Below, piece by piece: positions 1,042 to 24,000 of a stretch of 24,000 nt of DNA. Location: the NCBI RefSeq assembly GCF_000174355.1, contig NZ_ACIS01000006.1, forward strand, positions 172,568 through 196,567, read 5' to 3'. Both the position numbers and the translations under genes were made by a program. The notes under the pieces were generated by a model, which did no database searches, was not told the DNA's origin, and was given only the letters and a program-made list of their open reading frames with translations. This stretch comes from Pseudogulbenkiania ferrooxidans 2002 (GTDB lineage: Bacteria > Pseudomonadota > Gammaproteobacteria > Burkholderiales > Chromobacteriaceae). Numbering within the stretch: the stretch's first letter is position 1; each line of letters begins with the position of its first letter.

Positions 1042-3837
1042 TCAATATCCACGCTCAAACACCGGCGCCGCATGCAGCCCCAGCTGGGCCAGCTTGCTCA
1101 CGCTGATGGCCACCATGTGCGCCTGGCGCCGGCGGCCGACTGTTTTCTCGACGTCCTCGTCCACCACCACGCCGCTCTGCAGCAGCTGGCGCTTGAAGAT
1201 GCGGCCGGTCTTGACGGGGAGGTGGTCGAACTTGGCGCGCAGGTGCGGCGCCGTGCTGATGTGGTCCATGACGTGCGAGGGCAGCACGAACAGGCATTCC
1301 TCCTCGCGACCGTCGACCACCAAGGTGTCCCAGCAATAGGGGTGCTCGAAGCGCTGGGCGGCGAGCTCGGACAGCAGGATCTCCATGATCCACACCCACG
1401 GCAGGCGGGTGCCGTCGGTGTCGGCGATGTGGGCGTTCATCTCGGCGATGATGTCTTCGATGAAGTCGCCCTGGCCGATGTCGATGCCGGCGAACTCGGT
1501 CAGCAGCGCCCAGGCGGTCATGATCGCGGCGTAGTTCTCCATCATCCGCTTGGCGGTGGCGTCGCCTTCACCGGCACGGCCGCGCTGCTGGCAGAACGCC
1601 ACGTAGCGCTTGTGGGTGTCACGGATGCGGGCGGCATCGATGCCGGCCAGGAACTGCAGCCACTCCCACACAGGGAACTGCGGCAGCTCGTGCGGGATGA
1701 TGGCGCCCTGTTTGGCGATGGCCAGGGTGGTGCGGCAGATCTTCGACTGCAGGCTCTCCACGTCCACTTCCTCGCCGGCCAACAGCACCGGGGCGCACAT
1801 CAGGTAGGGCGTCAGGGTGGCGCCAACGCGGGTGAATTCGAAGCGGTAGGTGGACTGCAGCAGGCCGTCGATGTCGGACAGGATGGACTTCGGCAGCTTG
1901 GAGAATTCGTCCCAGCCCACTGGGTGGGTGGTGTACGACACCGACGCCCGGCGCCGGTGGTCGGTCTTGAGCATCTGGCCGGACAGCACCTGGAAGGCTA
2001 GCGTAGCCTGCATGCTCTCCAGTAGCTTGGATTTGCCCGACCCCTTCTCGGCCTGCATCTGGAAGTGGGGGTAGAAGCCCAGCACGTTCTTCAGGTGCGC
2101 GCCCAGGCCCCATACCAGGCCGATGGCAGCGGCGTTTTCCTTGAAGGTGGCCTGATAGGCATTGATTACCGCGCGGGCGTTCTGGGTGGAACCGCGCGGA
2201 AAGCTCATGTTGTTGTACAGGCACTGCTTCTGCGGCTCGACGAAAAAGCAATCGTTGCCCTCGAGGGCGGCCAGCTCTTCGCCGCGCCAGGCGAGCCCGA
2301 CGAAGTTCACCACATCACGAGCCGCCAGATCGGCCGAACGCTCCAGGATGTTCACCATGCGGGCGAACTTGGCCGGGTTCCAGATGTGGCCGAACTTGGC
2401 CTTCCACCATTCCAGGTTGTAGAGCTTGTCGCCGGTCACCACCTCGCGCTGCAAGTGGGGGCCGTTGCGCGCCAGCTGGCAGCTGATGCCGAACACGGTT
2501 TCCGGCTGGTTGTCCGGCATGCCGTTGATGGTCGACAGGTGCGACTGAATCCGCAGGCGAGACAGACCGGCCACGCGGAAGGAACACAAGTCGCCGTAGA
2601 CCTCGCTGCGGCTCACCTTGCCGTCGTCGTCCTTGCTGTCCTTGAACTCGTCGACGTGCCGGGTGAAGTCGTCCAGTACCTGGTAGCGCCAGTAGACGGA
2701 CAGGTCGTGACCCTGCAGGAAGACGCGCTGGCGGCCATTGAGCTGGTGACGGCGATCGGCGTCGACCGACGGCTGCCCCGGGATCAGCCACTGGTCCAGC
2801 TTTTTCAGCCGGATTCGCAGCTCCTCGGCACCGTGGTCCTTCAGCACATCGTTGATGTCCTCGCCTTCCTCCCAGTCCAGCATGTCCACCAGGCGATTGG
2901 CGATATCGCTGGCGGTCAGTGCGTCAGCCACCTTCCACGCCGCTTCCATGCCGGGGCGGGTACGGGTTTTCTCGTTCAGCTTGTCGGTGTGATCGAGCGC
3001 CACGATCACTTTCTTGCCGCGCGCCCAGCTCCAGTCGAGGTTGGTGTTGGCCACGCCGCGGATCGCCACCACGGCGACGCCGGGATAGTTCTGCAGGGCG
3101 GTTTCGATCGACAGGGCGTTGATCGGGCTCTCCACCACGTAGACGGTATGCGCCCGCTTCAGGCGGGCGAGGTCGGAGGTCCAGAAAAAGCCGACCTTCT
3201 CGCCCTGGCATTGGGTTTTCACGTCGCCGTTCAGCGCCGGGTCGGCGTAGCGCAGATCCACCGCCACCACCTTGGCGCCGGCCAGGCTGCGCACGATGAA
3301 GGCGACCGCCGGGCCGCCGTACCCTGGCTCGCCCTCGGCCACCTTGGTCGAGGTCCAGGTGTTCCAGCCGATCGCACGCCGGCGGATGGCATCGTGGACT
3401 ACCTGCTCGGCGATGCCGCGCCCGGTCAGGTAGGCCACGGCCGGCTCGGTGTCCTTCAGACAGCGCTCGGCGATGTATTCCACCGTGCTCTTGCGCTCCG
3501 GTACCGCGCTCTTCTCCCGGCTGGGGCGTGGGATGGTGTACCAGTCCGCCAGCAGATTGGCGGCGTCCATCGGGTCGTTGGCACGGCCGGCGTACATCAC
3601 CAGGTCGATGCTCGTGCCGCCGATGTCGGCGGTGTGGTCCTTCCAGCCGGTGCCGTGCTTTTCATGGTTGACGTAGATCGACAGCGAGGGGTGCTTTTCC
3701 TTGCGGGACGGTGAGAAGTAATTGCCGTCGCGTCCCTGGCGTTCCATGCCCAGCCGATCGGCCAGGTCGTGCAGATCGATCTCGCTTTTGAGGCGAGCGA
3801 ACCATTCCCCCATGGCGGGGTTGTTGTTTGGTGTCAT
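1042..3837 (-). CDS. Replication protein: primase (degenerate zinc-ribbon-like N-terminus + Toprim) fused to P-loop NTPase/helicase-like domain, 931 aa
   Basis: Toprim signature YVVESPINALS ... IVALDHTD. Walker A AEKGSGKSKL and Walker B-like VGWDEF. The N-terminus FSPSRKEKHPSLSIY...GWKDHTADIGGTSIDLV matches the spacing of a CHC2 primase zinc finger but lacks the Cys residues. Confidence 0.8.
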   Translation of the reverse strand: MTPNNNPAMGEWFARLKSEIDLHDLADRLGMERQGRDGNYFSPSRKEKHPSLSIYVNHEKHGTGWKDHTADIGGTSIDLVMYAGRANDPMDAANLLADWYTIPRPSREKSAVPERKSTVEYIAERCLKDTEPAVAYLTGRGIAEQVVHDAIRRRAIGWNTWTSTKVAEGEPGYGGPAVAFIVRSLAGAKVVAVDLRYADPALNGDVKTQCQGEKVGFFWTSDLARLKRAHTVYVVESPINALSIETALQNYPGVAVVAIRGVANTNLDWSWARGKKVIVALDHTDKLNEKTRTRPGMEAAWKVADALTASDIANRLVDMLDWEEGEDINDVLKDHGAEELRIRLKKLDQWLIPGQPSVDADRRHQLNGRQRVFLQGHDLSVYWRYQVLDDFTRHVDEFKDSKDDDGKVSRSEVYGDLCSFRVAGLSRLRIQSHLSTINGMPDNQPETVFGISCQLARNGPHLQREVVTGDKLYNLEWWKAKFGHIWNPAKFARMVNILERSADLAARDVVNFVGLAWRGEELAALEGNDCFFVEPQKQCLYNNMSFPRGSTQNARAVINAYQATFKENAAAIGLVWGLGAHLKNVLGFYPHFQMQAEKGSGKSKLLESMQATLAFQVLSGQMLKTDHRRRASVSYTTHPVGWDEFSKLPKSILSDIDGLLQSTYRFEFTRVGATLTPYLMCAPVLLAGEEVDVESLQSKICRTTLAIAKQGAIIPHELPQFPVWEWLQFLAGIDAARIRDTHKRYVAFCQQRGRAGEGDATAKRMMENYAAIMTAWALLTEFAGIDIGQGDFIEDIIAEMNAHIADTDGTRLPWVWIMEILLSELAAQRFEHPYCWDTLVVDGREEECLFVLPSHVMDHISTAPHLRAKFDHLPVKTGRIFKRQLLQSGVVVDEDVEKTVGRRRQAHMVAISVSKLAQLGLHAAPVFERGY

Positions 3838-5050: not shown

Positions 5051-5679
5051 GGGGTGGGGCCTTCCGCCCGGTCGGCGGCATTCTCGGCAATCACCTTGTC
5101 GATGGCCGCATCCAGGGCAGCTGTGTCGCACTCCGTCAGGCCGCAGTACATGACCAGGATGGACAGAGCTTGGCCACCATTCTCAGAGGCGAGTTGTTTA
5201 ATGATCTGCCAGCGAGCGGCGTCTTTGAGGACTGCATCGGGGACATCGAGGCCCAGTTGAGCCTGTTCCGGAGTGGGTGTGGCGGGCTGGACGGCCAGCG
5301 TCGCCAGTTCGGTGATCACTGTGCCGGACTGATCATCAGCCAGAGACCAGCCCGAGCGAGCGGGGATACCAACGCTGGGGTCGCCGCTGTCGTGGTAGTA
5401 GGCGATGCGGGCAAACAGCTTCTCGCTCCATTCCTCCGGTTGCCCTTCAAAGGCTAAATCGTCGAAGCCAGCCCAGAGTTCTTGAACACCATCACGGGCA
5501 GCTTCGAGGCCGCGCTCAAAGCCGTCATTGACTTCGCCCACATGCGCCGCCACCAGGTAGGTCAGATCCTCGGCCAGGATGGAATCAGCGATGGTCGGGC
5601 CCATCACGCCGCCGAAATCACGGGCCGTGCGTGCGCAGGCGTTCTGCACTGCGGTGGCCAGCTTGGCAAGGTTGCTCAT
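5047..5679 (-). CDS. Hypothetical protein, 210 aa
   Basis: The ATG at 5679 is preceded by GAGGAGACCAAAGC and forms an ATGA overlap with the upstream gene. The longer 300-aa ORF in the track is an out-of-frame N-terminal extension. Confidence 0.65.
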   Translation of the reverse strand: MSNLAKLATAVQNACARTARDFGGVMGPTIADSILAEDLTYLVAAHVGEVNDGFERGLEAARDGVQELWAGFDDLAFEGQPEEWSEKLFARIAYYHDSGDPSVGIPARSGWSLADDQSGTVITELATLAVQPATPTPEQAQLGLDVPDAVLKDAARWQIIKQLASENGGQALSILVMYCGLTECDTAALDAAIDKVIAENAADRAEGPTP

Positions 5680-9645: not shown

Positions 9646-9791
9646 CGCAGGGCCTCCACGAGTTCCGCGCCGAACAGGCGGACCAGTTCCTTGGCGAGCC
9701 CGCCTACGGCTTGGCCGGGCTGCAGGTTGTCGCGCACGCCAGTAATGCCGTGCTTGGCCAGACAGGGGGGAATGGGGCTATTGAGCTGCAT
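9582..9791 (-). CDS. Hypothetical protein, 69 aa (3' end uncertain)
   Basis: The ATG at 9791 overlaps the CII-like gene end by 14 nt. GC3 is high. The last 64 nt overlap the next ORF. Confidence 0.45.
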   Translation of the reverse strand: MQLNSPIPPCLAKHGITGVRDNLQPGQAVGGLAKELVRLFGAELVEALRCDKPGTASNSASRSKPLPVS

Positions 9792-10242
9792 GGATCACCA
9801 GCCCCTTGAAGCGCGAGCGCAGTTCCAGGATGGCGGCGATCCAGTCATGCAGATCGCGCTCAACCGTCTTGAACTCGTCGAGGGTGACGACGCCGTCGTC
9901 CAGCGCATCGCCCATGCTGCGGTGGGCTTCGCCGGCTTCGACGTGCACCTGGTTGACCAGGTCGAGCAGTGCCTCGTCGGACACGTTGCTCATATCCGGC
10001 AACTGGTAGGTGACGCAGTTGAACAGGCTGTTCAGCGCCTTGAGCGGGCGCAGGTTCCGGCTGTAATCCAGGATCTGGATGAAGTCGGACAGGGTGGGTT
10101 TATGGAGTGCGTTGGGTTTTTTCAGCGAGACCTTGTTGTAGAGGGTGCCCTTGTGCACCTTCATCAGGCCTGCCAGCTTGGGCACCCCGAAAGCGTGCGC
10201 TGCCTGTTGCAGCTCTTCGAACACGTCGATCGACTGTTCCAT
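9778..10242 (-). CDS. Putative CII-like early regulator, 154 aa
   Basis: It is the second gene of the rightward-promoter-equivalent operon after cro. HTH-like segment GVPKLAGLMKVHKGTLYNKV. ATG at 10242 with GGAG upstream. The family assignment is positional and from memory only. Confidence 0.45.
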   Translation of the reverse strand: MEQSIDVFEELQQAAHAFGVPKLAGLMKVHKGTLYNKVSLKKPNALHKPTLSDFIQILDYSRNLRPLKALNSLFNCVTYQLPDMSNVSDEALLDLVNQVHVEAGEAHRSMGDALDDGVVTLDEFKTVERDLHDWIAAILELRSRFKGLVIHAAQ

Positions 10243-10363
10243 GTGATAGCTCCGCAAAAAAATCGTCTTGTACGAATTTCTTCCGGTGCCGATACTGTGG
10301 TTGCCACACCGTAGTACCTGCACCACCGTGCCGTGCCCACCTAGCCCGTGGGTGCGGCGCTTC

Positions 10364-11904: not shown

Positions 11905-12636
11905 TCACGGCGCCGGAAAATCCAGTCCAAACAGGATCGACATCAGGTGGCAGCGGTTGGTCGCCCCATATAGCAGTTTGATTTTGTTGATCTTGTCGCG
12001 CACCGTGCGCGTGGTCAGGCCCACCCGTTCGGCGGTTTCATGGTCGGGCAGGCCGTTGGTCATGCAATGTAAGATGTGACATTCCCGCTTGCTCAACCTC
12101 GACAGGTTCGGTCGGGCGCTGACAATCCTCACTGCCACGTCGGCCAGCCTGGGCATCAGGCATTCCAGCAGATCCTGGGCCGCGCGGTCTCGCTCCGCTT
12201 CCACGCCTGCCACACTCAGAATCACCCGATAGTCGCCCCGTTCCTCGATCCAGCTGAAACCCCGAGTCAGGCCGTAGCGCGCGCACAGATGGAAAAACCG
12301 GTTCTCGTCACGGGTAGGGGGGATGGACGCCATCAGGTCCGGCCAGACGATCGGGACATGCGGCGCGGCCCGTAACACCGGGTCGACCAGGTAGAAGGCT
12401 TCCTTGCGGTACAGGCTGAGCCACTGGCCGGGCCAATCCACCCCGGCAAGATGATGCAGGACGAGCGCCGGCAGCGCCGATTGGGTCACCACCAGCAGCA
12501 GCCTGCTGTCGGTGGGCAGGTGGCTTTTCATGCTGTTTAGATAACGATTGAGCTGGTCTGGGTGATTCACTGTGACCAGCTCGTCCAATAGGATGATGAC
12601 GGAATTCGCCAATCTTCCTAAGTATCTGTTTCGCAT
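11905..12636 (-). CDS. LuxR-family quorum-sensing receptor homologue (AHL-binding domain + GerE/LuxR HTH), orphan/solo, 243 aa
   Basis: The N-terminal domain aligns by eye with LasR: QWLSLYRKEAFYLVDPVL...PIVWPD...RYGLTRG. It keeps the W, Y, D, P, W and G hallmark residues. The C-terminal SKRECHILHCMTNGL...TVRDKINKI keeps the E, L and G hallmarks. No luxI-type gene is in the window. The ATG at 12636 has no clear SD. Confidence 0.85.
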   Translation of the reverse strand: MRNRYLGRLANSVIILLDELVTVNHPDQLNRYLNSMKSHLPTDSRLLLVVTQSALPALVLHHLAGVDWPGQWLSLYRKEAFYLVDPVLRAAPHVPIVWPDLMASIPPTRDENRFFHLCARYGLTRGFSWIEERGDYRVILSVAGVEAERDRAAQDLLECLMPRLADVAVRIVSARPNLSRLSKRECHILHCMTNGLPDHETAERVGLTTRTVRDKINKIKLLYGATNRCHLMSILFGLDFPAP

Positions 12637-12679
12637 TAAAAAGGTACTGCGCCGCCGTGTTTCTACTAGGCGACACAAT

Positions 12680-13156: not shown

Positions 13157-13708
13157 TTACGTCAGGCTGGGCTCAGGCCACTGGATCGCGGCCAACTGCT
13201 CGGCCGCATCCGGCGCCGCCAGATCGACCGCCATCAACGCATCCTCCAGCGCCTGGCGCTGGCCGATGATCTGTCCACTGGCCACAGCATAGGACAACAC
13301 CTTGGCGCGCACCCGTTCGGCCAACGTGGCGACCGTCAGTCCGCGGGCGGTGGCGATGGCGGTCAGCAGTGGCGTGGAGGCGACGGGATCGGCCACTAAC
13401 GCCTCGGCCTCGCGGGTTTGCTGGGCCCAGCTTTGCACCTCGCCGTCGGGGTAGCTGGCGGACAGGGTGGCCAGCAGGGAGGCGGCGTGGGTATTGATGT
13501 CAACCAGCCTCTGCGTGAGAAGCTCGGCCAATACGATCGGCTCGGGCGGCAGCGCGACCACTTCTCCATCGACGATGTGAAACGCCCCGCCGGAACGAAT
13601 GCGGATGTAGTCGTCCTCGCCGATCTCAACCAGCCCATCGGGATCGACACCACTGCCCATGAACGCAGCTTCTACAATCCCCTGCTGGTCTACTTTTGCG
13701 AAAAACAT
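13157..13708 (-). CDS. Tail fibre assembly/chaperone-like protein (DUF4376-like C-terminal half), 183 aa
   Basis: SYPDGEVQSWAQQTREAEAL...TPLLTAIATARGLTVATLAERV pattern. It lies immediately downstream of the fibre gene. AAGGGGGAATT precedes the ATG. Confidence 0.65.
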   Translation of the reverse strand: MFFAKVDQQGIVEAAFMGSGVDPDGLVEIGEDDYIRIRSGGAFHIVDGEVVALPPEPIVLAELLTQRLVDINTHAASLLATLSASYPDGEVQSWAQQTREAEALVADPVASTPLLTAIATARGLTVATLAERVRAKVLSYAVASGQIIGQRQALEDALMAVDLAAPDAAEQLAAIQWPEPSLT

Positions 13709-13717
13709 AATTCCCCC

Positions 13718-14791
13718 TTAGTAGGCTGCACGAACGATGATTTCGGAGTCAGCCTGCGACCAAACCGACGCATCAGTAGGCCCTGGGTTAAATACGGCAG
13801 CTGCTGCAGACTGGTTATTCCAAATTAAGGAAATGGTGTACGACCCGGCGGCCAATACCCCCAGATAGGTAGATCCGTTGAACGGCAGGTTGTACGCGTA
13901 ACCGGCGCCCGAGCTGCCAACATGAATCCGACTACTTCGGGACTTCTGTGTCGCACCCAGCATCAGACGGGCATCACCATAAACAACCGAACCCGCGTTA
14001 GAACCAAACCACGTCCGCCAATCCACAACGACAGGCGTTGCCTGCGCCAGCATGAAGTTGAGCGTCATCACCGTGGTGTCGCCACTAGCGGCAACCACAG
14101 CTCGTGTTGCTGTAAAAAGGCTGGCAATGATCTTGCCTGACCCAGAAGAGATACCCGTAGCTGGGTTGAGCAGCACCCACTTATCCAGCGCTTGGTCGTA
14201 CTGGAGTTCGATCCAGTGACCCACCCCGGCAATATCACCAGCAGCCAACGCCGAGCCAGCCCCTTTGACGATAGTCTTGGCTGCGATGGTTCCGTTGTTC
14301 GGTGTGAAGGTCGGCGTGGTCGTCGTATTGGCCGATGCAGCGCGGACGAATAAGGACATACCGTTGGTCAACGCGGTGATGGCCGGGGTGTAGCTGGCGG
14401 TGATCGCATCGGCAGCACCACCTGCGCCGGAAGTGATCGCCGCGCTACTTTGTACCGCGTTCTGCAGGGCCGCCATGTTCGCCAGTTGGGTGGTATTGGT
14501 GCCAACGGCGGCTGTTGGTGCGGCCGGGGCGCCGGTGAATACCGGAGACGCCAGCGGCGCCTTGTTCGCCAGAGCAGCCAGCAGCAGGGTTTTGATCTGG
14601 TCGCGCCGAGCAGGGTCAAGAGCCTCACCAAACCCCTCCACCAGGTTGGCCAACTCCTCCTGGATGGCGTTGTAAAACTCATAGCCCGGCGTAGTAGCTG
14701 GCGCCACGCCCGGGCTCCCCGCCTTGAACCCATGTTTGCCGACGCCGAACAGATCCAGCGCGGGATTTCGGGTAGCCAATACACGTTGCAT
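13718..14791 (-). CDS. Tail fibre protein, 357 aa, mosaic
   Basis: The GC-rich N-terminus is typical of fibre attachment domains (...LASPVFTGAPAAPTAAVGTNTTQLANMAALQ...). The AT-richer C-terminal two-thirds is rich in Thr, Ala, Gly and Ser. GGAGGTAATTAAGA precedes the ATG. Confidence 0.75.
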   Translation of the reverse strand: MQRVLATRNPALDLFGVGKHGFKAGSPGVAPATTPGYEFYNAIQEELANLVEGFGEALDPARRDQIKTLLLAALANKAPLASPVFTGAPAAPTAAVGTNTTQLANMAALQNAVQSSAAITSGAGGAADAITASYTPAITALTNGMSLFVRAASANTTTTPTFTPNNGTIAAKTIVKGAGSALAAGDIAGVGHWIELQYDQALDKWVLLNPATGISSGSGKIIASLFTATRAVVAASGDTTVMTLNFMLAQATPVVVDWRTWFGSNAGSVVYGDARLMLGATQKSRSSRIHVGSSGAGYAYNLPFNGSTYLGVLAAGSYTISLIWNNQSAAAAVFNPGPTDASVWSQADSEIIVRAAY

Positions 14792-18584: not shown

Positions 18585-19809
18585 TTTTCAGCACCTCGAT
18601 GTCGCCGGCCGGGACAAAGCCCGGGTGCATCACGCCGTTTCGCGCTACCAGGTCGTCAGCAACCTCGATCGCACCGGTCACCTGGTACGCCACCACCAGC
18701 GCCGGCAGCGAAGTTTGCGTCGTCACCGTGGCCACGTCGGCGGTGGCCGGCAGGCGCGCCTGAATCGACGTGGCCACCGTCACGCGCAGCGCCTGCAGGG
18801 CGGGGTAGAGCGTGTCGGAAGCGGACTGCATCTCGGTGTTCAGAGCCTGCAGGATCTGGGCGCGAGCGTTCTGCACGTCGGCCTTGGTGGTGAAGGTGGC
18901 GGTGGGCAGCGTGCGGGCGGCCTCGATCACCAGCGTGCGGCGCACGTAGGCGGCGAGCGCCGGCGGCATGGAAGGCAGATCGCCCGCGCGGCGGGAAGGG
19001 TTCGGCAGGGTCCAGTCCGGTCGCGCGCTCGATGTGCTCGAGGTGGAAAGGATCGTGCTGTAGCTGCCACCCGTGCGCCACGGGTTCAGCACTTCGTCCT
19101 TCAGCAGCTTGCGCCAGGCGGTGACCCCGGAAAACGGGGTATCCAGCTTGCCGACCAGCGTCTGGATGCGGCTCTGAATCCGTGAAACCACCAACAGCGG
19201 GGCGTTGATGATGGTCTGCACCGAGTGGATGATGCGATCCACCTTGGCCATCGCTGCGTCGTAGGCCTCGAAGTAGCTCTCGAACGTGGCGCAGGCAGCT
19301 TCCACCGCCGCGGCAGCCTCGTCGGCATAGCCGGCGATCTCGTCCAGCCAGGACGATGCCAGCTCGCTGTCGGCCGCGGCCTGGGCGCTGTCGGCGGCGG
19401 CCTCCAGTTGGGCGTCGGTGTCGGCGCGTGCTGCCGGCTCGCTGTTCTCGCCGGCCTCGCGTAGATCCATCTCGACGACGATGCGCCCGCCCAGCGCCCG
19501 GGGGTAGCGCACCCGGGCCGGGCGCTCCAGCTGCACGAACTGGGTGCCACGCCAGGGATGCACCAGCGTGCCGGCGCCTTTCGCTTCGAGCACGTCGATC
19601 AGCCGGTCGGAATCGTCCCGGGCGGAGGGGCCGATGAAGATGGCCGACACGGTGAAGCCACGCGCGGCCCGGCCCATGTCCTCGCCGAACGGCACGTCGC
19701 GGTAGGGGTATTCGTGTAGCACCGTGCGCCGGCCGACTTCCATGTCGGTCTCGGCGACGCGGAAGCCAACGCCCTTGAACGAGGCGGGGCGGAGTGGGGT
19801 CTCGGCCAT
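18577..19809 (-). CDS. DNA circulation protein-like tail protein (Mu gp43-like), 410 aa
   Basis: N-terminus ASFKGVGFRVAETDMEVGRRTVLHEYPYRDVPFGEDMGR. It follows the tape measure gene with a TGATG overlap. Confidence 0.8.
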   Translation of the reverse strand: MAETPLRPASFKGVGFRVAETDMEVGRRTVLHEYPYRDVPFGEDMGRAARGFTVSAIFIGPSARDDSDRLIDVLEAKGAGTLVHPWRGTQFVQLERPARVRYPRALGGRIVVEMDLREAGENSEPAARADTDAQLEAAADSAQAAADSELASSWLDEIAGYADEAAAAVEAACATFESYFEAYDAAMAKVDRIIHSVQTIINAPLLVVSRIQSRIQTLVGKLDTPFSGVTAWRKLLKDEVLNPWRTGGSYSTILSTSSTSSARPDWTLPNPSRRAGDLPSMPPALAAYVRRTLVIEAARTLPTATFTTKADVQNARAQILQALNTEMQSASDTLYPALQALRVTVATSIQARLPATADVATVTTQTSLPALVVAYQVTGAIEVADDLVARNGVMHPGFVPAGDIEVLKNA

Positions 19810-21636
19810 CAGTTAGGCCCTCGCATGGTGGGGCCCACCGGCAACCTGGTGCGGTTGTTCGCCGGCGTCGCCGTGGTGGTGGCGGTCACGCCCGGGGCGG
19901 CGGTGACCTGGATCTGGATAGTGCCGCCGATCTCGGCCTGCTGCAGCTTCTCGGTCATGGCCACGGCGCGCTTGGCATCCTCGTTGCCGAACATCGCCAG
20001 GATGCGGGCTACGCCCCCGCCGACCTTGTCGACCAGGAAGTCCCCGGCCTTGGTTCCCTCCATGGCCTTGTAGGCGACGGTGCCGGCGCCGTAGCCAACT
20101 GCGCCGGCGGCAGTTGCTGCCGCGGCCGTGGTTCCGATCGCACCGATGCCCAGCTTGAGGAAATCCTTCAGCGGCAGGCCGCCCGCCATGGCCGCGCCCA
20201 CTTTCCACTTGCTGGCCACCTTGCCAGCCAGGCCAGCAGCTGCGCCGCCGGCGGCACCGTCGATCGCGCCACCACCCGGTCCGCCATTGGGCATGTTGAC
20301 CACGAACACCGGCGTCACGCCGGCGGTGGCCTCGAGCGCCTTGCCGGTGGCCACGCCGGCGGCAGTTCCTCCAGCCTTGCCGATCAGTGAGCTGACCAGC
20401 TTGCCGCCGTATCGCGCCGCCAGTGCGGTGCCGGCCGTCAGCGCTACAGCACCGCCGATCATCTCCTTGCCGCCCAGCGCCAGCCCGCCGTTGGCCTTGC
20501 TATCCATACCCCACTTGATCACCTGGGACAGGGTGTCGTTGATCGGCTGGGCGAAGCTGTCGGCGGCCTCGCGCAGGGCGGCCTTGAGGCGACCAGTCTG
20601 GTCGACGGCGTTGTCGATCGCGCTGCCCATGTCGCGCTTGAGGGTGCCGCCGGCGCCGCCGATCTCGCCGCTGAACTGGTTGATCTTGTCGAGGGTGTTG
20701 CCCGACAGCAGGATCTTCATCCCCTTGATCGTGTCCAGGTCGGCCTTGCCGAAGGCCTTCTGTAGGAAGGTGGCACGGCCCTTGTCGGTGCCGAGTTTGT
20801 CGTATTGCTTTTTGATATCCGCGATGACGGCCAAAGCATCTCGTCGGCTGCCGTCGGTGTTGAAGAACTTCACGCCGGTGGCTTTGGCGGCATCCTTCAT
20901 GTAATGCAGATTGTTGAACAGCCGCAGCGTGGAATCGGCCAGCGTGGCCAAGCGCTCCGGCTGACGTTCCATCATCGACAGGCCTTCGATGAACGCCAGC
21001 GTCTTGTCGAAGCCCATGCCGGCACTGGCGGCGCTGGGCCACCCTGGCGAAGATATCCGACAAGTTTTCCAGTTCGGCATTACCCTTGCGGCCGGCCACC
21101 GTCATCTTGTCGAGCAGTTGCAGCGCCAGCCCCGGGTTGGCCAGGTCGAAGTGGAAGGCTTCAGACGCCACGCTCAGGCCGCCGGTCAGCTTGTCGGCCT
21201 TGGCGTTGGTCACGGCCATGGCTACGTTGGTGGCGTCGATCTCCTCCCGCGCTGCTTTCCAACTCTGGCCGGCCTGCACCAGGTTGTTGAAGCCTTCCTT
21301 CAGATCCTCCACGCCGCGGCCGGATTCCTTGGCCATGCGGAACATGTCCTCCCGCAGCGCGTTGGCTTCCTCGCGCGTCGCCTCGGCGGTCAGGCGAATG
21401 CCGGTCAGGCTCTTGTCCAGGTTCGCCGAGTCGGCCGCCACCTTGAGGGCCGTGATGCCGCCGGCCAATGTGGTGAGCTGGCCATGCAGCGAGCCCATGA
21501 AGCCCTTCACCGACTCCAGCTCGTGCTTCACGCTGGCGGCAAACTTGCTGGTCTCGCGCACGCCCGAAGCCAGGCCTGCCGCATAGCGGGCGGCATCGGC
21601 ATAGATCCGGACGGACAGGGACAGCTCGTTACTCAT
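19809..21636 (-). pseudogene. Tail tape measure gene split by a frameshift (N-part 21037-21636, C-part 19809-21035)
   Basis: The frame starting at 21636 reads sensibly to ...ELENLSDIFARVA, then turns Arg/Gln-rich until it stops at 20500. The +1 frame reads sensibly from ...SAASAGMGFDKTLAFIEGLS to the stop at 19809. The switch point is at the GGG/CCC run 21036-21038. Confidence 0.75.
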
Positions 21637-22077
21637 CGTCTTTGGGCTCGGTGGCCTTGATCAGGGTGTCGCGGTAGTGCAGAAACTCGTGCACCGGGAG
21701 CCGGCCGATCTCGGCCCGGCTCCAGCCGGTTTTGCAGGCGATCAGGAGGATGCCGTCGAGGAATCGCTCTCGGCGGCGGCAGACGCTTCCCCCAGGCGTT
21801 CGGCCTCGTTGAGGCCGGCCACCAGCTTTTGCCAGTCGCCGTTGCGCACTTTGAGCATGCCCGGCGTCACAGGGATGGCCTCGCCGTCGAGAGAAACGAT
21901 CTGGTGAGCCACCAGGGCACGGCGGTAGGCAAGAGGTGAGAACGTCGAGTTCGCTTCAGCCTCGGCCTCGATCATGTCGTCCAGCATCGGTTCACGAAGG
22001 ACGACCGTTTTGAGATTGCGGCCTTTGAAGGGAATACCGTGTGTCAGGGTGACGGTGACGGTTTTGAGTTCGGACAT
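21629..22077 (-). CDS. Predicted -1 frameshift fusion product of the chaperone gene (GT-type)
   Basis: The -1 frame is open from about 21957 to a TAA at 21629-21631. That stop overlaps the tape measure ATG (GATGAGTAA). The frame encodes ...LIACKTGWSRAEIGRLPVHEFLHYRDTLIKATEPKDDE. Candidate slip sites are CUG GGG GAA (C-run 21789-21793 on the plus strand) and CAA AAG (21826-21831). Confidence 0.55.
21742..22077 (-). CDS. Tail assembly chaperone (Mu/FluMu gp41-like, G-type), 111 aa
   Basis: MSELKTVTVTLTHGIPFKGRNLKTVVLREPMLDDMIEAEAEA pattern. It lies directly upstream of the tape measure gene. GGGAG SD present. Confidence 0.7.
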   Translation of the reverse strand: MSELKTVTVTLTHGIPFKGRNLKTVVLREPMLDDMIEAEAEANSTFSPLAYRRALVAHQIVSLDGEAIPVTPGMLKVRNGDWQKLVAGLNEAERLGEASAAAESDSSTASS

Positions 22078-22208
22078 GCCAGCTCCCGGTAGATAAGGTG
22101 GGCGGGCGCTTCGCGCCCATGCTGGCATTCTGGGTGGTGGTGTGGTGCGGAATAAGGGGGGGATTTGGTGCTGGCTAGGTTTGATAGAGCAGCATCAAAG
22201 GGAGCGAT

Positions 22209-22706
22209 TTACTTCATACCTACCAAGATACTGGCTTCAGGCATCAATTGAATAGATTGCGTTTTGCCTGATGCGAGTACTACGGTTCGATTGAGGGAGA
22301 AATCCTGAGTGATCACGGGCACTCCTTCGGGAATCGTAGTTGTTATTTCGGTGTTAGGGGTCTTGAAAGTACCCGCTTTGCCGATTTTTACTAGTGCATG
22401 AAGCGCAATTTTGGCATGTTGGGGAGTCTGCTCAAGCAGTGTCAGTTCGCTAATAATGGTTACCACGCCTTGACGGCAAGAGTCAGGCGTTTCGCATCGG
22501 CGAATAATGAATGGTGACTGAAGGACCGTCTTTTCCTCCCCCTTTTCCAAATCAAGAACCCCACCTCCTCCAAGGGGTTGTTTCGCAAAAGGATGCACAT
22601 GGTAGAGGTGAAAGGTGAATTGATTCCCTGGTGCACCGTTATCTTTATCGGTGGTTGCGCATCCAGCCAACAATGCCAATGCAGAGATGTAGGCTATGTA
22701 TTTCAT
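22209..22706 (-). CDS. Lipoprotein, 165 aa
   Basis: MKYIAYISALALLAG/CATT: signal peptide plus lipobox LAGC. ATGA overlap with the upstream small ORF. The 187-aa ORF in the track is an N-terminal over-extension. Confidence 0.75.
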   Translation of the reverse strand: MKYIAYISALALLAGCATTDKDNGAPGNQFTFHLYHVHPFAKQPLGGGGVLDLEKGEEKTVLQSPFIIRRCETPDSCRQGVVTIISELTLLEQTPQHAKIALHALVKIGKAGTFKTPNTEITTTIPEGVPVITQDFSLNRTVVLASGKTQSIQLMPEASILVGMK

Positions 22707-22885
22707 CGGGTGCACACCTGCCGCGACTTGCTGATAGTCCCATCCTTGCAGACGAACTTCCCGCCAGAGCAATGTGACACGCCACCCTTCTTTCCCGAGC
22801 AGGGCGTGTTACGGGCTTCGGCCAGCGGGGCGAGGAGAGTGAGGGACAGGACTGCCATCAGTAGTGCTTTCATATTGTGTCTCAT
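22703..22885 (-). CDS. Small secreted cationic Cys-rich peptide precursor, 60 aa (36-aa mature)
   Basis: Signal peptide MRHNMKALLMAVLSLTLLAPLAEA/RN. The mature peptide has 4 Cys and about 8 Lys/Arg against 1 Asp. CKDGTISKS resembles the CKDGTxSxS motif of DUF3761-type small secreted proteins (from memory). Alternative starts lie at 22873 (ATG) and 22894 (TTG). Confidence 0.6.
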   Translation of the reverse strand: MRHNMKALLMAVLSLTLLAPLAEARNTPCSGKKGGVSHCSGGKFVCKDGTISKSRQVCTR

Positions 22886-22890
22886 GGTGA

Positions 22891-23253
22891 TCAATGCAGA
22901 GTCTGAGGGGAGGAGGTGGCCGCCTTACTCCATTCCGCTAGATCGCTCTCTGCCCTCGCATGCTCCTCTGCCATCTCCGACAGGGACAACGGTTTATCAA
23001 CTTCGAAGGTCTCAATGCGGTGAATGTTGGGGCATTTGTCGACCAGCCCTTGGAACATCGTATCGAGCTGCTTGACGGTGAAGGCCAGACGAATCTTGCG
23101 TGAGAAGAACAGACGGACCAATGTGTAGTCGTTGCTGTTACAGCTGCTTTGTATGCTCTGCACCTCTTGGCGAAGCCAGCCCCGGAATTTAAGAGGCGTA
23201 ATATGGTCGGGGAGGTTGAGGATGGAGATGCGGAGCTTGCCTGAAGTGCTCAT
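22891..23253 (-). CDS. Hypothetical cytoplasmic protein, 120 aa
   Basis: ATG at 23253; an alternative GTG lies at 23265. No signal peptide. The residue pattern suggests a beta-alpha-beta-beta-alpha-beta fold followed by an acidic helical tail. Family not recognised. Confidence 0.6.
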   Translation of the reverse strand: MSTSGKLRISILNLPDHITPLKFRGWLRQEVQSIQSSCNSNDYTLVRLFFSRKIRLAFTVKQLDTMFQGLVDKCPNIHRIETFEVDKPLSLSEMAEEHARAESDLAEWSKAATSSPQTLH

Positions 23254-23286
23254 GGTAATGCCCACGGAAATGACTTTTGCATTTTC

Positions 23287-23300
23287 CAGAAAAGCGAAGT
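23287..23300. repeat. Copy 3 of conserved intergenic motif CAGAAAAGCGAAGT
   Basis: Exact 14-mer shared with 787-800. It lies between the mazEF terminator and the first gene of the three-gene cassette. Confidence 0.6.
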
Positions 23301-23310
23301 CACAGGCAAG

Positions 23311-23334
23311 AAAAACCCCGCGCTAAGCGGGGTT
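23311..23334 (-). terminator. Rho-independent terminator after the toxin gene
   Basis: The minus strand reads AACCCCGC-TTAGC-GCGGGGTT followed by TTTCTT. It starts 5 nt after the stop at 23339. Confidence 0.8.
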
Positions 23335-23338
23335 GGTA

Positions 23339-23677
23339 TCACTCTGGAAGGATGGATCTGAACTTATCCAGCACCTCGTTAAGAACATAGTCGGGGACTG
23401 ATTCTTTCTTTTTTGCTCCTCTTGCCCGCCAGTCGAGAGTTTTGCTCTGGTGCGAGAGGATGATGCCTTGAGTTTCCGTGCCACATCCCATTAGGGAAAC
23501 GGCGAAGCCCGCCGTTCTGGCATTGTCCTGGCTACCTTGCGTTATGGGGCAGACCAAGGCCATACCTGACTGATTGAAGTCATGCAATGAGATCACCAGT
23601 CCAAAGTGGGGACCTTTCATCTCGCGGCCGGCAGCAGGATCAAAATTCAGGTGGATAATGTCACCAGGGTTAAACAA
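23339..23677 (-). CDS. mazF: MazF/PemK/ChpB-family endoribonuclease toxin, 112 aa
   Basis: GDIIHLNFDPAAGREMKGPHFGLVIS, LVCPITQG and LDWRARGAKKKESVP align by eye with E. coli MazF/ChpBK. TTG start with AAGGAG 6 nt upstream. Confidence 0.85.
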   Translation of the reverse strand: MFNPGDIIHLNFDPAAGREMKGPHFGLVISLHDFNQSGMALVCPITQGSQDNARTAGFAVSLMGCGTETQGIILSHQSKTLDWRARGAKKKESVPDYVLNEVLDKFRSILPE

Positions 23678-23687
23678 GTAAGTCTCC

Positions 23688-23933
23688 TTACCAAATTTCT
23701 TGGCCCTCCGGCGGCAGGTCGTCCCAGACTGGCATCAGGTATTCAGGAGGAGTCTGAGCAAGCAACTCTTCCACGTTGTAGCGCCTTCTTCTGAGAGCTG
23801 AAACAACCATGCTCGGGCCTTCGATATTCACATCCACCATGTCACCGGCAGACAGGTGGTTTTGCTCGGCAAACGCCGAAGGGATCGTCATGATGAGCGA
23901 CCCGCCCGAGCGGCGAAGCGTTGCAGTAGTCAT
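23688..23933 (-). CDS. mazE: MazE/PemI-type antitoxin (AbrB/SpoVT fold), 81 aa
   Basis: RRSGGSLIMTIPSAFAEQNHLSAGDMVDV swapped-hairpin motif. Acidic, Trp-containing C-terminus. It lies 10 nt upstream of the toxin gene. Confidence 0.8.
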   Translation of the reverse strand: MTTATLRRSGGSLIMTIPSAFAEQNHLSAGDMVDVNIEGPSMVVSALRRRRYNVEELLAQTPPEYLMPVWDDLPPEGQEIW

Positions 23934-23970
23934 TTCTCTATCCTTACGCTCAATCAGAGTCGTTGTCAGT

Positions 23971-24000
23971 GTCGTAGTCGTAGGTCGTAGTCGTAGTCGT
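23971..24000. repeat. Tandem hexamer array (GTCGTA)2-G-(GTCGTA)2-GTCGT, truncated by the window edge
   Basis: Read directly from the sequence. It lies 38 nt upstream of the mazE ATG. It may be an operator array, or the 3' end of an upstream minus-strand ORF ending at the TGA at 23950-23952. Confidence 0.6.

Follow-up and report, generated by a model that had tools for sequence, protein, structure and literature searches.

Phage morons are cargo genes of deviant base composition that lie between conserved late genes and are present in some related phages and absent from others, and classical morons have their own promoter and terminator. Here we analyzed a 1.1-kb segment with three minus-strand genes in a phage tail operon of Pseudogulbenkiania ferrooxidans 2002, at positions 22209-23310 of a 24,000-nt stretch of contig NZ_ACIS01000006.1 (hereafter the window). 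The three genes encode a 120-aa orphan protein without an export signal, a short secreted peptide of the YdcA family, and a 165-aa lipoprotein. A preliminary description of this segment, made from the DNA sequence, had taken them for an autonomous and undescribed three-gene system. Our analysis indicates that the segment is probably not one dedicated system but part of a mosaic island of cargo genes (morons), of which it forms the downstream half. The island probably occupies a recombination-prone slot in a Mu-type myovirus prophage, with the tail tube gene on one side and the tail assembly chaperone gene on the other.

Several described systems resemble parts of this locus. Cor (phages phi80, N15, and HK022) and Llp (phage T5) are, like the lipoprotein described here, phage-encoded lipoproteins of the outer-membrane type whose genes lie near tail genes, and T5 Llp protects phage progeny against receptor present on cell debris. 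The P. ferrooxidans lipoprotein likewise has a lipobox and an outer-membrane targeting signal (LAGC, Cys16, and Ala at position +2, with the targeting predicted from the E. coli +2 rule). However, it has no sequence or fold similarity to Cor and Llp, its mature form, at 150 aa, is far larger, members of its family are found outside phages as well, and receptor blocking is only putative. The structure of Llp has been described (PMC9586334). Morons within late operons can also be defence genes expressed from the prophage, as is Tab of Pseudomonas phage JBD26 (PMC10884400; PMC3594210), which for this locus is a precedent only. The 120-aa orphan protein is cytoplasmic and similar to Tab in size and in class of position, but has no sequence similarity to Tab-like families. 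The YdcA peptide shares with its family a Sec signal peptide, a mature part of ~36 aa, and an invariant motif. Its gene lies in a prophage tail operon and is coupled to a lipoprotein gene, whereas ydcA of E. coli stands alone.

A variable cargo slot in related prophages

The segment was compared with two related loci. One (L002) is a Logan assembly of SRR5177929 with 79-90% DNA identity to the window, and the other (L023) is an IMG/VR prophage with 83% DNA identity in the tail genes. Two independent read assemblies of the same strain as the window (L003 and L004) were also available. The gene order in L002 was mazE, mazF, the same hairpin and leader as in the window, ydcA, the lipoprotein (68% identical), and the chaperone, and the 120-aa gene was missing. 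The alignment with L002 covered the window up to 23269 and resumed at 22877, with 16 nt in L002 in place of the 391 nt at 22878-23268. In L023, the order was sheath, tube, the same hairpin and leader, ydcA (86% protein identity, alignment A5), an unrelated 246-aa lipoprotein, chaperone, and tape measure, with neither mazEF nor the 120-aa gene. The chaperone-proximal part of the spacer (~22100-22168) was conserved in all three loci, and homology to L023 resumed at position 22168; judging from these alignments, this part marks the right edge of the cargo slot.

The window, L002, and L023 therefore differed in the 120-aa gene, the mazEF pair, and the lipoprotein gene while their flanks aligned, which is the presence/absence pattern of morons. 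As far as the three variants indicate, the constant content of the slot is the hairpin, the leader, and ydcA, the lipoprotein gene is exchangeable, and mazEF and the 120-aa gene appear to be later additions. The trio of genes was found in one strain only, and every contig with the 120-aa gene matched the window at 99.9-100% identity. Only two closely related loci combined ydcA with a member of this lipoprotein family, and 11 loci with lipoprotein relatives had no ydcA-like gene within flanks of up to 6 kb on each side. Conservation of the trio as a three-gene unit was thus not observed: the 120-aa gene was absent from both L002 and L023, and ydcA of L023 lies beside an unrelated lipoprotein gene.

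The second feature of morons, deviant composition, was also present. The G+C content was 0.48-0.55 over 22000-24000 compared with 0.60-0.72 in the tail genes, and the GC3 values of the lipoprotein and chaperone genes were 0.46 and 0.74, respectively. These values support the earlier proposal that accessory cargo of foreign composition is embedded in the tail operon. The three ORFs and the low G+C content of their surroundings were confirmed as well, but the AT-richer stretch does not end at 23310. It continues through mazF and mazE to the end of the window, forming a low-GC island of at least 1.9 kb.

The three genes are most likely separately acquired cargo, namely a strain-specific orphan, a copy of the widespread ydcA, and a rare lipoprotein gene. 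Both ydcA (dN/dS 0.08-0.17) and the lipoprotein gene (dN/dS 0.27 vs L002) are under purifying selection (0.08-0.27 over the two genes). What looked like a puzzling trio can be described as a hot spot for cargo that lies, in a family of Mu-type prophages, between the genes for the tail tube and the chaperone, with ydcA as the one constant passenger and its companions freely exchanged. Of the autonomous three-gene system first proposed, the cargo nature and the two export signals were retained, while the unit, its autonomy, and a toxin-immunity function were not. These results provide no evidence yet of a new defence or exclusion mechanism.

Hairpin, leader, and transcription signals

The predicted hairpin (stem 23334-23314) has 8 bp, of which 6 are G-C pairs, and is followed by TTTTTCTTG; it lies 57 nt upstream of the first ATG. 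Its folding energy was -16.1 kcal/mol (z = -2.5), and in L023 one base pair was altered on both sides with pairing retained. The leader at 23269-23305 had the consensus GACTTCGCTTTTCTG.AAAATGC.AAA.TCATT in all three slot variants (alignment A2). The fold, together with conservation in the two related loci, confirmed an intrinsic-terminator-like hairpin ahead of a 57-nt leader.

The independent transcription unit that had been proposed to begin at this hairpin was not supported. A consensus scan found no sigma-70-like promoter in the leader, the window, L002, or L023 (atypical promoters escape such a scan), and a terminator scan of the stretch from the lipoprotein gene to the chaperone gene was negative. 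In contrast to classical morons, the cargo genes are accompanied by no detected promoter, and the sole hairpin lies upstream of them and not at their 3' side. The hairpin of L023 lies ~95 nt past the tail tube gene. Because it directly follows this gene, the hairpin more likely belongs to the tail operon than marks the beginning of an independent unit.

The YdcA-family peptide

The short peptide was identified as a member of the YdcA family, with matches to phrog_6000 (E=3e-26) and NF007463/PRK10040 (E=8e-25) and 54% identity to YdcA of E. coli K-12 (b1419). The NF007463 score (86.4 bits) was under the cut-off of 93 for that equivalog, and PF27300:YdcA is recorded for the identical gene on both L003 and L004. 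The preliminary description had recognized none of the three products. This still applies to tail, spanin, Cor/Llp, and PADLOC families, none of which was matched, but not to the peptide, which belongs to this named family.

The peptide most probably starts at ATG 22873, giving a 56-aa precursor; on identical contigs the gene was called from this ATG, which is also where the L002 and L023 homologues begin. With this start, the gap after the 120-aa gene is likely 17 nt and not the 5 nt given earlier, and the precursor is likely 56 aa and not 60 aa. The other properties described for the secreted peptide were confirmed: the signal peptide ends in AEA, and the mature peptide has 36 aa, four Cys, and a net charge of +6.8 (previously ~+7). 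The ATGA overlap at 22703-22706, in which the TGA of the peptide gene overlaps the ATG of the lipoprotein gene, was also as claimed.

Alignments A5 and A6, which include E. coli YdcA and the phage and prophage homologues, revealed the conserved motif PCSGxKGGxSHC...FxCxDGxxSxSxxxC with its four Cys invariant; in A6, 17 columns of the mature peptide did not vary. The mature peptide was near-invariant among copies from Pseudogulbenkiania, Haemophilus, Moraxella, Acinetobacter, and Escherichia, whether on phages, prophages, or chromosomes. The interest of the locus rests mainly here and in the recurrent coupling of ydcA to exported partners, with a peptide that is nearly invariant from Enterobacterales to Neisseriales and Rhizobiales and is carried by phages, plasmids, and chromosomes. 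Deletion of ydcA in E. coli causes sensitivity to 3-hydroxypropionate, and the gene is reportedly acid-induced (PMC7642389).

A weak resemblance was found between YdcA and each lobe of Legionella Dis2 (Lpg0823; PDB 7MUC chain AN), with the shared pattern C.SK.GG[IV]..C...G..VCN[DN]G..S. Dis2, which belongs to the Dot/Icm system, is a small periplasmic protein that lies close to the outer membrane, is pinned by disulfides, and has no reported structural relative (PMC8486379). It differs from YdcA in having two lobes and five disulfides and in belonging to a type IVB secretion system. The match had E=0.003 with the signal peptide included and E=0.1 with a profile of the mature peptide only (3.9 and 21 for the two matched stretches). 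As the match was insignificant after removal of the signal peptide, we keep homology to Dis2 as a lead only; if the likeness were real, YdcA would be a single-lobe relative.

Spread of ydcA and its downstream partners

Relatives of YdcA were found on 294 viral contigs, in at least 271 species genomes, and on 57 plasmids, and the family reaches alphaproteobacterial genera such as Brucella and Rhizobium. The phage copies occupy typical cargo positions (Table 1). In Haemophilus phage HP2, ydcA is on the lysogenic side of the switch, between cI and orf1; the product of orf1 is a secreted OB-fold protein of the tRNA_anti-like type. E. coli K-12 ydcA is solitary, between rydC and hokB. The ydcA-like ORF is unannotated in the deposited genomes of HP2, S2, Ab11510-phi, and several Mcat phages.

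Many ydcA genes are tightly coupled to a downstream ORF. An N-terminal signal or transmembrane segment was found in 16 of the 22 ORFs coupled in this way, compared with a background of 21%, and three more coupled ORFs encode C-tail-anchored DUF4236 proteins. This enrichment was obtained with a crude signal-peptide heuristic and from loci that are not independent, and it is taken as a lead and not as a result. The partners comprise secreted SNase nucleases, a trypsin-PAN protease, the OB-fold protein of HP2 orf1, and several unrelated lipoproteins. The SNase genes start a few bases after ydcA in Brucella, Xanthobacter, Methylobacterium, and other alphaproteobacterial genomes (loci L123, L128, L130, L137, L139, L152, L158, L161, and L162, from about position 5170 onward), so that ydcA and a nuclease gene form a recurrent pair. 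The Pfam SNase family was matched in L123 (E=1e-12), and the remaining nuclease loci were recognized through the shared motif. The frequent coupling to exported partners and the repeated uptake by prophages provide a handle on YdcA.

The lipoprotein

The 165-aa product was confirmed as a lipoprotein with an LAGC lipobox, which was retained in 17 of the 19 aligned family members, and a Cys71/Cys77 pair was conserved in the family. The family is rare, with seven representatives among 1.84 billion proteins and 17 proteins retrieved by profile search. AlphaFold2 with the 19-sequence alignment gave a confident all-beta model of eleven strands (pLDDT 85, pTM 0.74); a single-sequence prediction (pLDDT 35) was not used. 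Foldseek searches against PDB and BFVD returned no significant fold match (best E=0.04-0.1, TM-score at most 0.37), no Pfam, NCBIfam, PHROG, or PADLOC family was matched, and IMG/VR contained no close relatives.

Distant relatives from Paraburkholderia and Caballeronia are encoded directly after an integrase gene (L011 and L012, 6001-6615; L184 and L185, 6001-6606), in islands that also hold SMODS (CBASS-type) or AbiEi genes. For another relative (L013, 6001-6618), the surroundings are associated with a transposase and include a nearby KAP NTPase gene, and one more lies inside a Mu-like prophage. Two closer relatives (P0005 and P0007) were found in ordinary chromosomal contexts. A further protein, P0001 (251 aa, L002 656-1411), is a gene-calling artefact, in which an out-of-frame read through the leader and ydcA is fused to the lipoprotein ORF; the true L002 product is the 165-aa lipoprotein starting at 914.

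The 120-aa orphan gene

The 120-aa protein, recorded as a hypothetical protein of P. ferrooxidans, matched only itself among 5.8 billion proteins. It matched no Pfam, NCBIfam, or PHROG family above noise, no PDB sequence, and nothing in phages or viral contigs. The ORF occupies 93% of the strain-specific 391-nt insert, and its codon positions showed a coding-type pattern (GC3 0.69 > GC1 0.52 > GC2 0.41), suggesting that it is probably a real gene. A weak collinear match (26% identity, 99 positions, E=0.04) was found to the N-terminus of WP_005742632, a hypothetical protein of the Pseudomonas megaplasmid pMPPla107, where the gene neighbourhood was uninformative.

Alternative explanations

Several points weigh against the reading of the segment as a mosaic of cargo genes. 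The slot position in P. ferrooxidans is derived from L023, as a tube gene upstream of mazEF would lie beyond the window, and activity of the cargo genes in the lysogen is only putative. We know of no function for any member of the YdcA family. The Lol sorting rules applied here are those of E. coli, and Neisseriales may follow other ones. The translational coupling of ydcA to the lipoprotein gene in both the window and L002 leaves a functional partnership possible, and the excess of exported partners downstream of ydcA hints at more than random juxtaposition of cargo.

One alternative is a receptor-masking or superinfection-exclusion module, in which an outer-membrane lipoprotein, possibly together with YdcA, would block a receptor or DNA entry in the manner of Cor or T5 Llp and thereby protect the lysogen or avoid the loss of progeny on debris. 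The location of the lipoprotein gene next to tail genes would fit such a module, as would the relatives that directly follow integrases or share islands with CBASS, AbiEi, or KAP NTPase genes and the presence of HP2 ydcA in the cI-int lysogeny module. By analogy with T5 Llp, co-transcription with the tail genes would suit the protection of progeny from a receptor on debris. However, no exclusion or defence family of PHROG, Pfam, or PADLOC and no fold was matched, L023 carries an unrelated lipoprotein despite its 83% DNA-identical tail genes, and the closer relatives P0005 and P0007 are found in ordinary chromosomal settings. We consider an exclusion module unlikely, and a role of the genes in exclusion or lysogenic conversion is possible. 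It is quite improbable that YdcA is a general periplasmic partner (adaptor, stabilizer, or inhibitor) of the downstream exported protein, with the lipoprotein as an exchangeable effector of a true two-component module. Many ydcA genes have no partner, among them that of E. coli K-12 and those of enterobacterial prophages with an integrase-like next gene, and the nucleases, protease, OB-fold protein, and lipoproteins that serve as partners share nothing recognizable. The ATGA coupling in the window, the overlaps or gaps of at most 10 nt in many loci, and the excess of signal or transmembrane segments among the partners, including the three DUF4236 proteins, would agree with a general partner, but the excess comes from a crude heuristic applied to non-independent loci. 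A reading that joins these elements is rather unlikely. YdcA-type peptides would then form a conserved periplasmic module that is spread by mobile elements and has an interchangeable downstream exported protein (nucleases, proteases, OB-fold proteins, or lipoproteins); in P. ferrooxidans, YdcA and the lipoprotein would act as a two-component envelope system altering the phage or stress susceptibility of the lysogen, and the 120-aa protein could be a separate Tab-like cytoplasmic defence moron.

The exported peptide is small and cationic and has four Cys, and its gene is coupled to a lipoprotein gene downstream, a layout that would fit a bacteriocin-like toxin with the lipoprotein as its immunity protein. 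If so, peptide and partner should co-vary, but YdcA was near-invariant while the putative immunity partner was unrelated between loci or absent, as in E. coli K-12. Moreover, no dedicated exporter was found, the lipoprotein family occurs without ydcA, and deletion of ydcA in E. coli is detrimental under stress and not neutral (PMC7642389). A toxin-immunity pair is thus very improbable. It is hardly credible that the genes are tail-assembly or lysis accessories, such as a spanin-like lipoprotein, of the phage's own lytic programme, even though they lie inside the tail operon with no separating promoter or terminator. There are no spanin, holin, or endolysin neighbours and no i-spanin partner. 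A spanin was rejected as a candidate given that the mature lipoprotein has 150 aa, is not Pro-rich, is encoded between ydcA and the tail chaperone gene, and gave no match to lysis families. A tail component was likewise rejected, as the slot content varies between prophages with 83% DNA-identical tail genes, the composition is foreign, and YdcA also occurs outside phages, on bacterial chromosomes and plasmids.

Proposed origin and action of the cargo genes

According to the mosaic cargo reading, mazEF would have been added upstream of the hairpin in the lineage of this strain, and the 120-aa gene would have been inserted precisely between the leader and ydcA as an independent cytoplasmic add-on. 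The cargo may be co-transcribed with the tail genes by read-through of the hairpin, or its transcription may start in the conserved leader, at a promoter that departs from the consensus. The YdcA precursor would be exported by the Sec pathway and cleaved after AEA, and in the periplasm would fold to a strongly cationic peptide of 36 residues with two disulfides. Because the mature sequence is near-invariant across distant orders, we propose that the peptide may bind a target common to many Proteobacteria. The lipoprotein would be acylated at Cys16 and sorted by the Lol system to the outer membrane, as predicted from the +2 rule of E. coli. Together or separately, YdcA and the lipoprotein might alter the envelope of the carrier cell, affecting stress tolerance or masking a surface structure against superinfection or progeny loss.

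Features of the locus and its surroundings

The features of the island and of its tail-side border are listed in Table 1, together with the positions of ydcA in other phages.

Table 1 Features of the P. ferrooxidans cargo island, in window positions, and locations of ydcA in other phages and prophages.
Feature	Position	Strand	Evidence or remark
mazE/chpS-like antitoxin, 81 aa	23688..23933	-	Pfam MazE_antitoxin E=1.9e-7; NCBIfam MazE and ChpS models
mazF/chpB-like endoribonuclease toxin, 112 aa	23339..23677	-	Pfam PemK_toxin E=1e-19; NCBIfam ChpB-family toxin E=3.7e-30; phrog_1936
G+C-rich hairpin and T-run, intrinsic-terminator-like	23306..23334	-	kept in L002 and L023
Conserved leader	23269..23305	-	alignment A2; common to all three slot variants
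Strain-specific 391-nt insert with 120-aa ORFan (CDS 22891-23253)	22878..23268	-	alignment with L002
YdcA-family secreted peptide, 56-aa precursor (60 aa from alternative start 22885)	22703..22873	-	
165-aa lipoprotein, coupled translationally to ydcA via ATGA	22209..22706	-	
Spacer ahead of tail chaperone gene	22078..22208	-	alignment A3; terminator scan negative
Tail assembly chaperone, 111 aa (as called, identical contigs); first tail gene past cargo	21742..22077	-	
ydcA in Haemophilus HP2	L009 2920-3102		between cI and int, unannotated in record
ydcA in Moraxella Mcat15			a few genes upstream of large gene annotated as tail protein
ydcA in Acinetobacter Ab11510-phi			few genes upstream of large gene without annotation
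ydcA in enterobacterial prophages			adjoins putative integrase (identity read from its sequence)

The two genes immediately upstream of the three, with the hairpin in between, form a clear MazEF/ChpBS type II toxin-antitoxin pair, with a PemK/MazF toxin domain preceded by a MazE/AbrB-type antitoxin gene; the pair lies outside 22209-23310. It was present in L002 and not in L023, and the dN/dS of mazF was 0.01 vs L002. No PADLOC defence family was found among all five island proteins. Megablast of 21700-24000 against phage records gave no match, and Rfam yielded only sub-threshold chance matches over 21500-24000. A search for att-like or flanking repeats returned just short chance pairs and a hexamer repeat at the window end. 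These tandem hexamer-type repeats (CTACGA-like units, 23955-24000) lie directly upstream of mazE, and four independent short-read assemblies of the P. ferrooxidans strain break exactly at them.

On the other side of the island, the chaperone gene was assigned by phrog_508 (tail assembly chaperone, E=4e-11) and a weak match to Pfam Phage_TAC_7. It is followed by tape measure (PhageMin_Tail), DNA_circ_N, GpP-like, Baseplate_J, and Mu Gp48 genes, which form a Mu-type contractile tail module. In the tape measure gene (19809-21636, minus strand), a 2-nt gap relative to the independent read assemblies L003 and L004 gives rise to two ORFs that overlap (20500-21636 and 19809-21080), whereas L003 and L004 have a single 609-aa PhageMin_Tail gene; the split gene is either an assembly error of the source record or a pseudogene. 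Just past the Mu-type baseplate genes (Baseplate_J and Mu Gp48) and two unassigned ORFs (13157-13708 and 13718-14791), a gene on the minus strand (11905-12678) encodes a LuxR-type regulator with an autoinducer-binding domain, possibly a LuxR solo, and may be additional prophage cargo. Further along the minus strand are genes for a Toprim-domain protein (931 aa, 1042-3837), a phage integrase (8429-9070), and a CII/CP76-type regulator (9778-10326); these may form this prophage's module for lysogeny and replication or belong to a second element.

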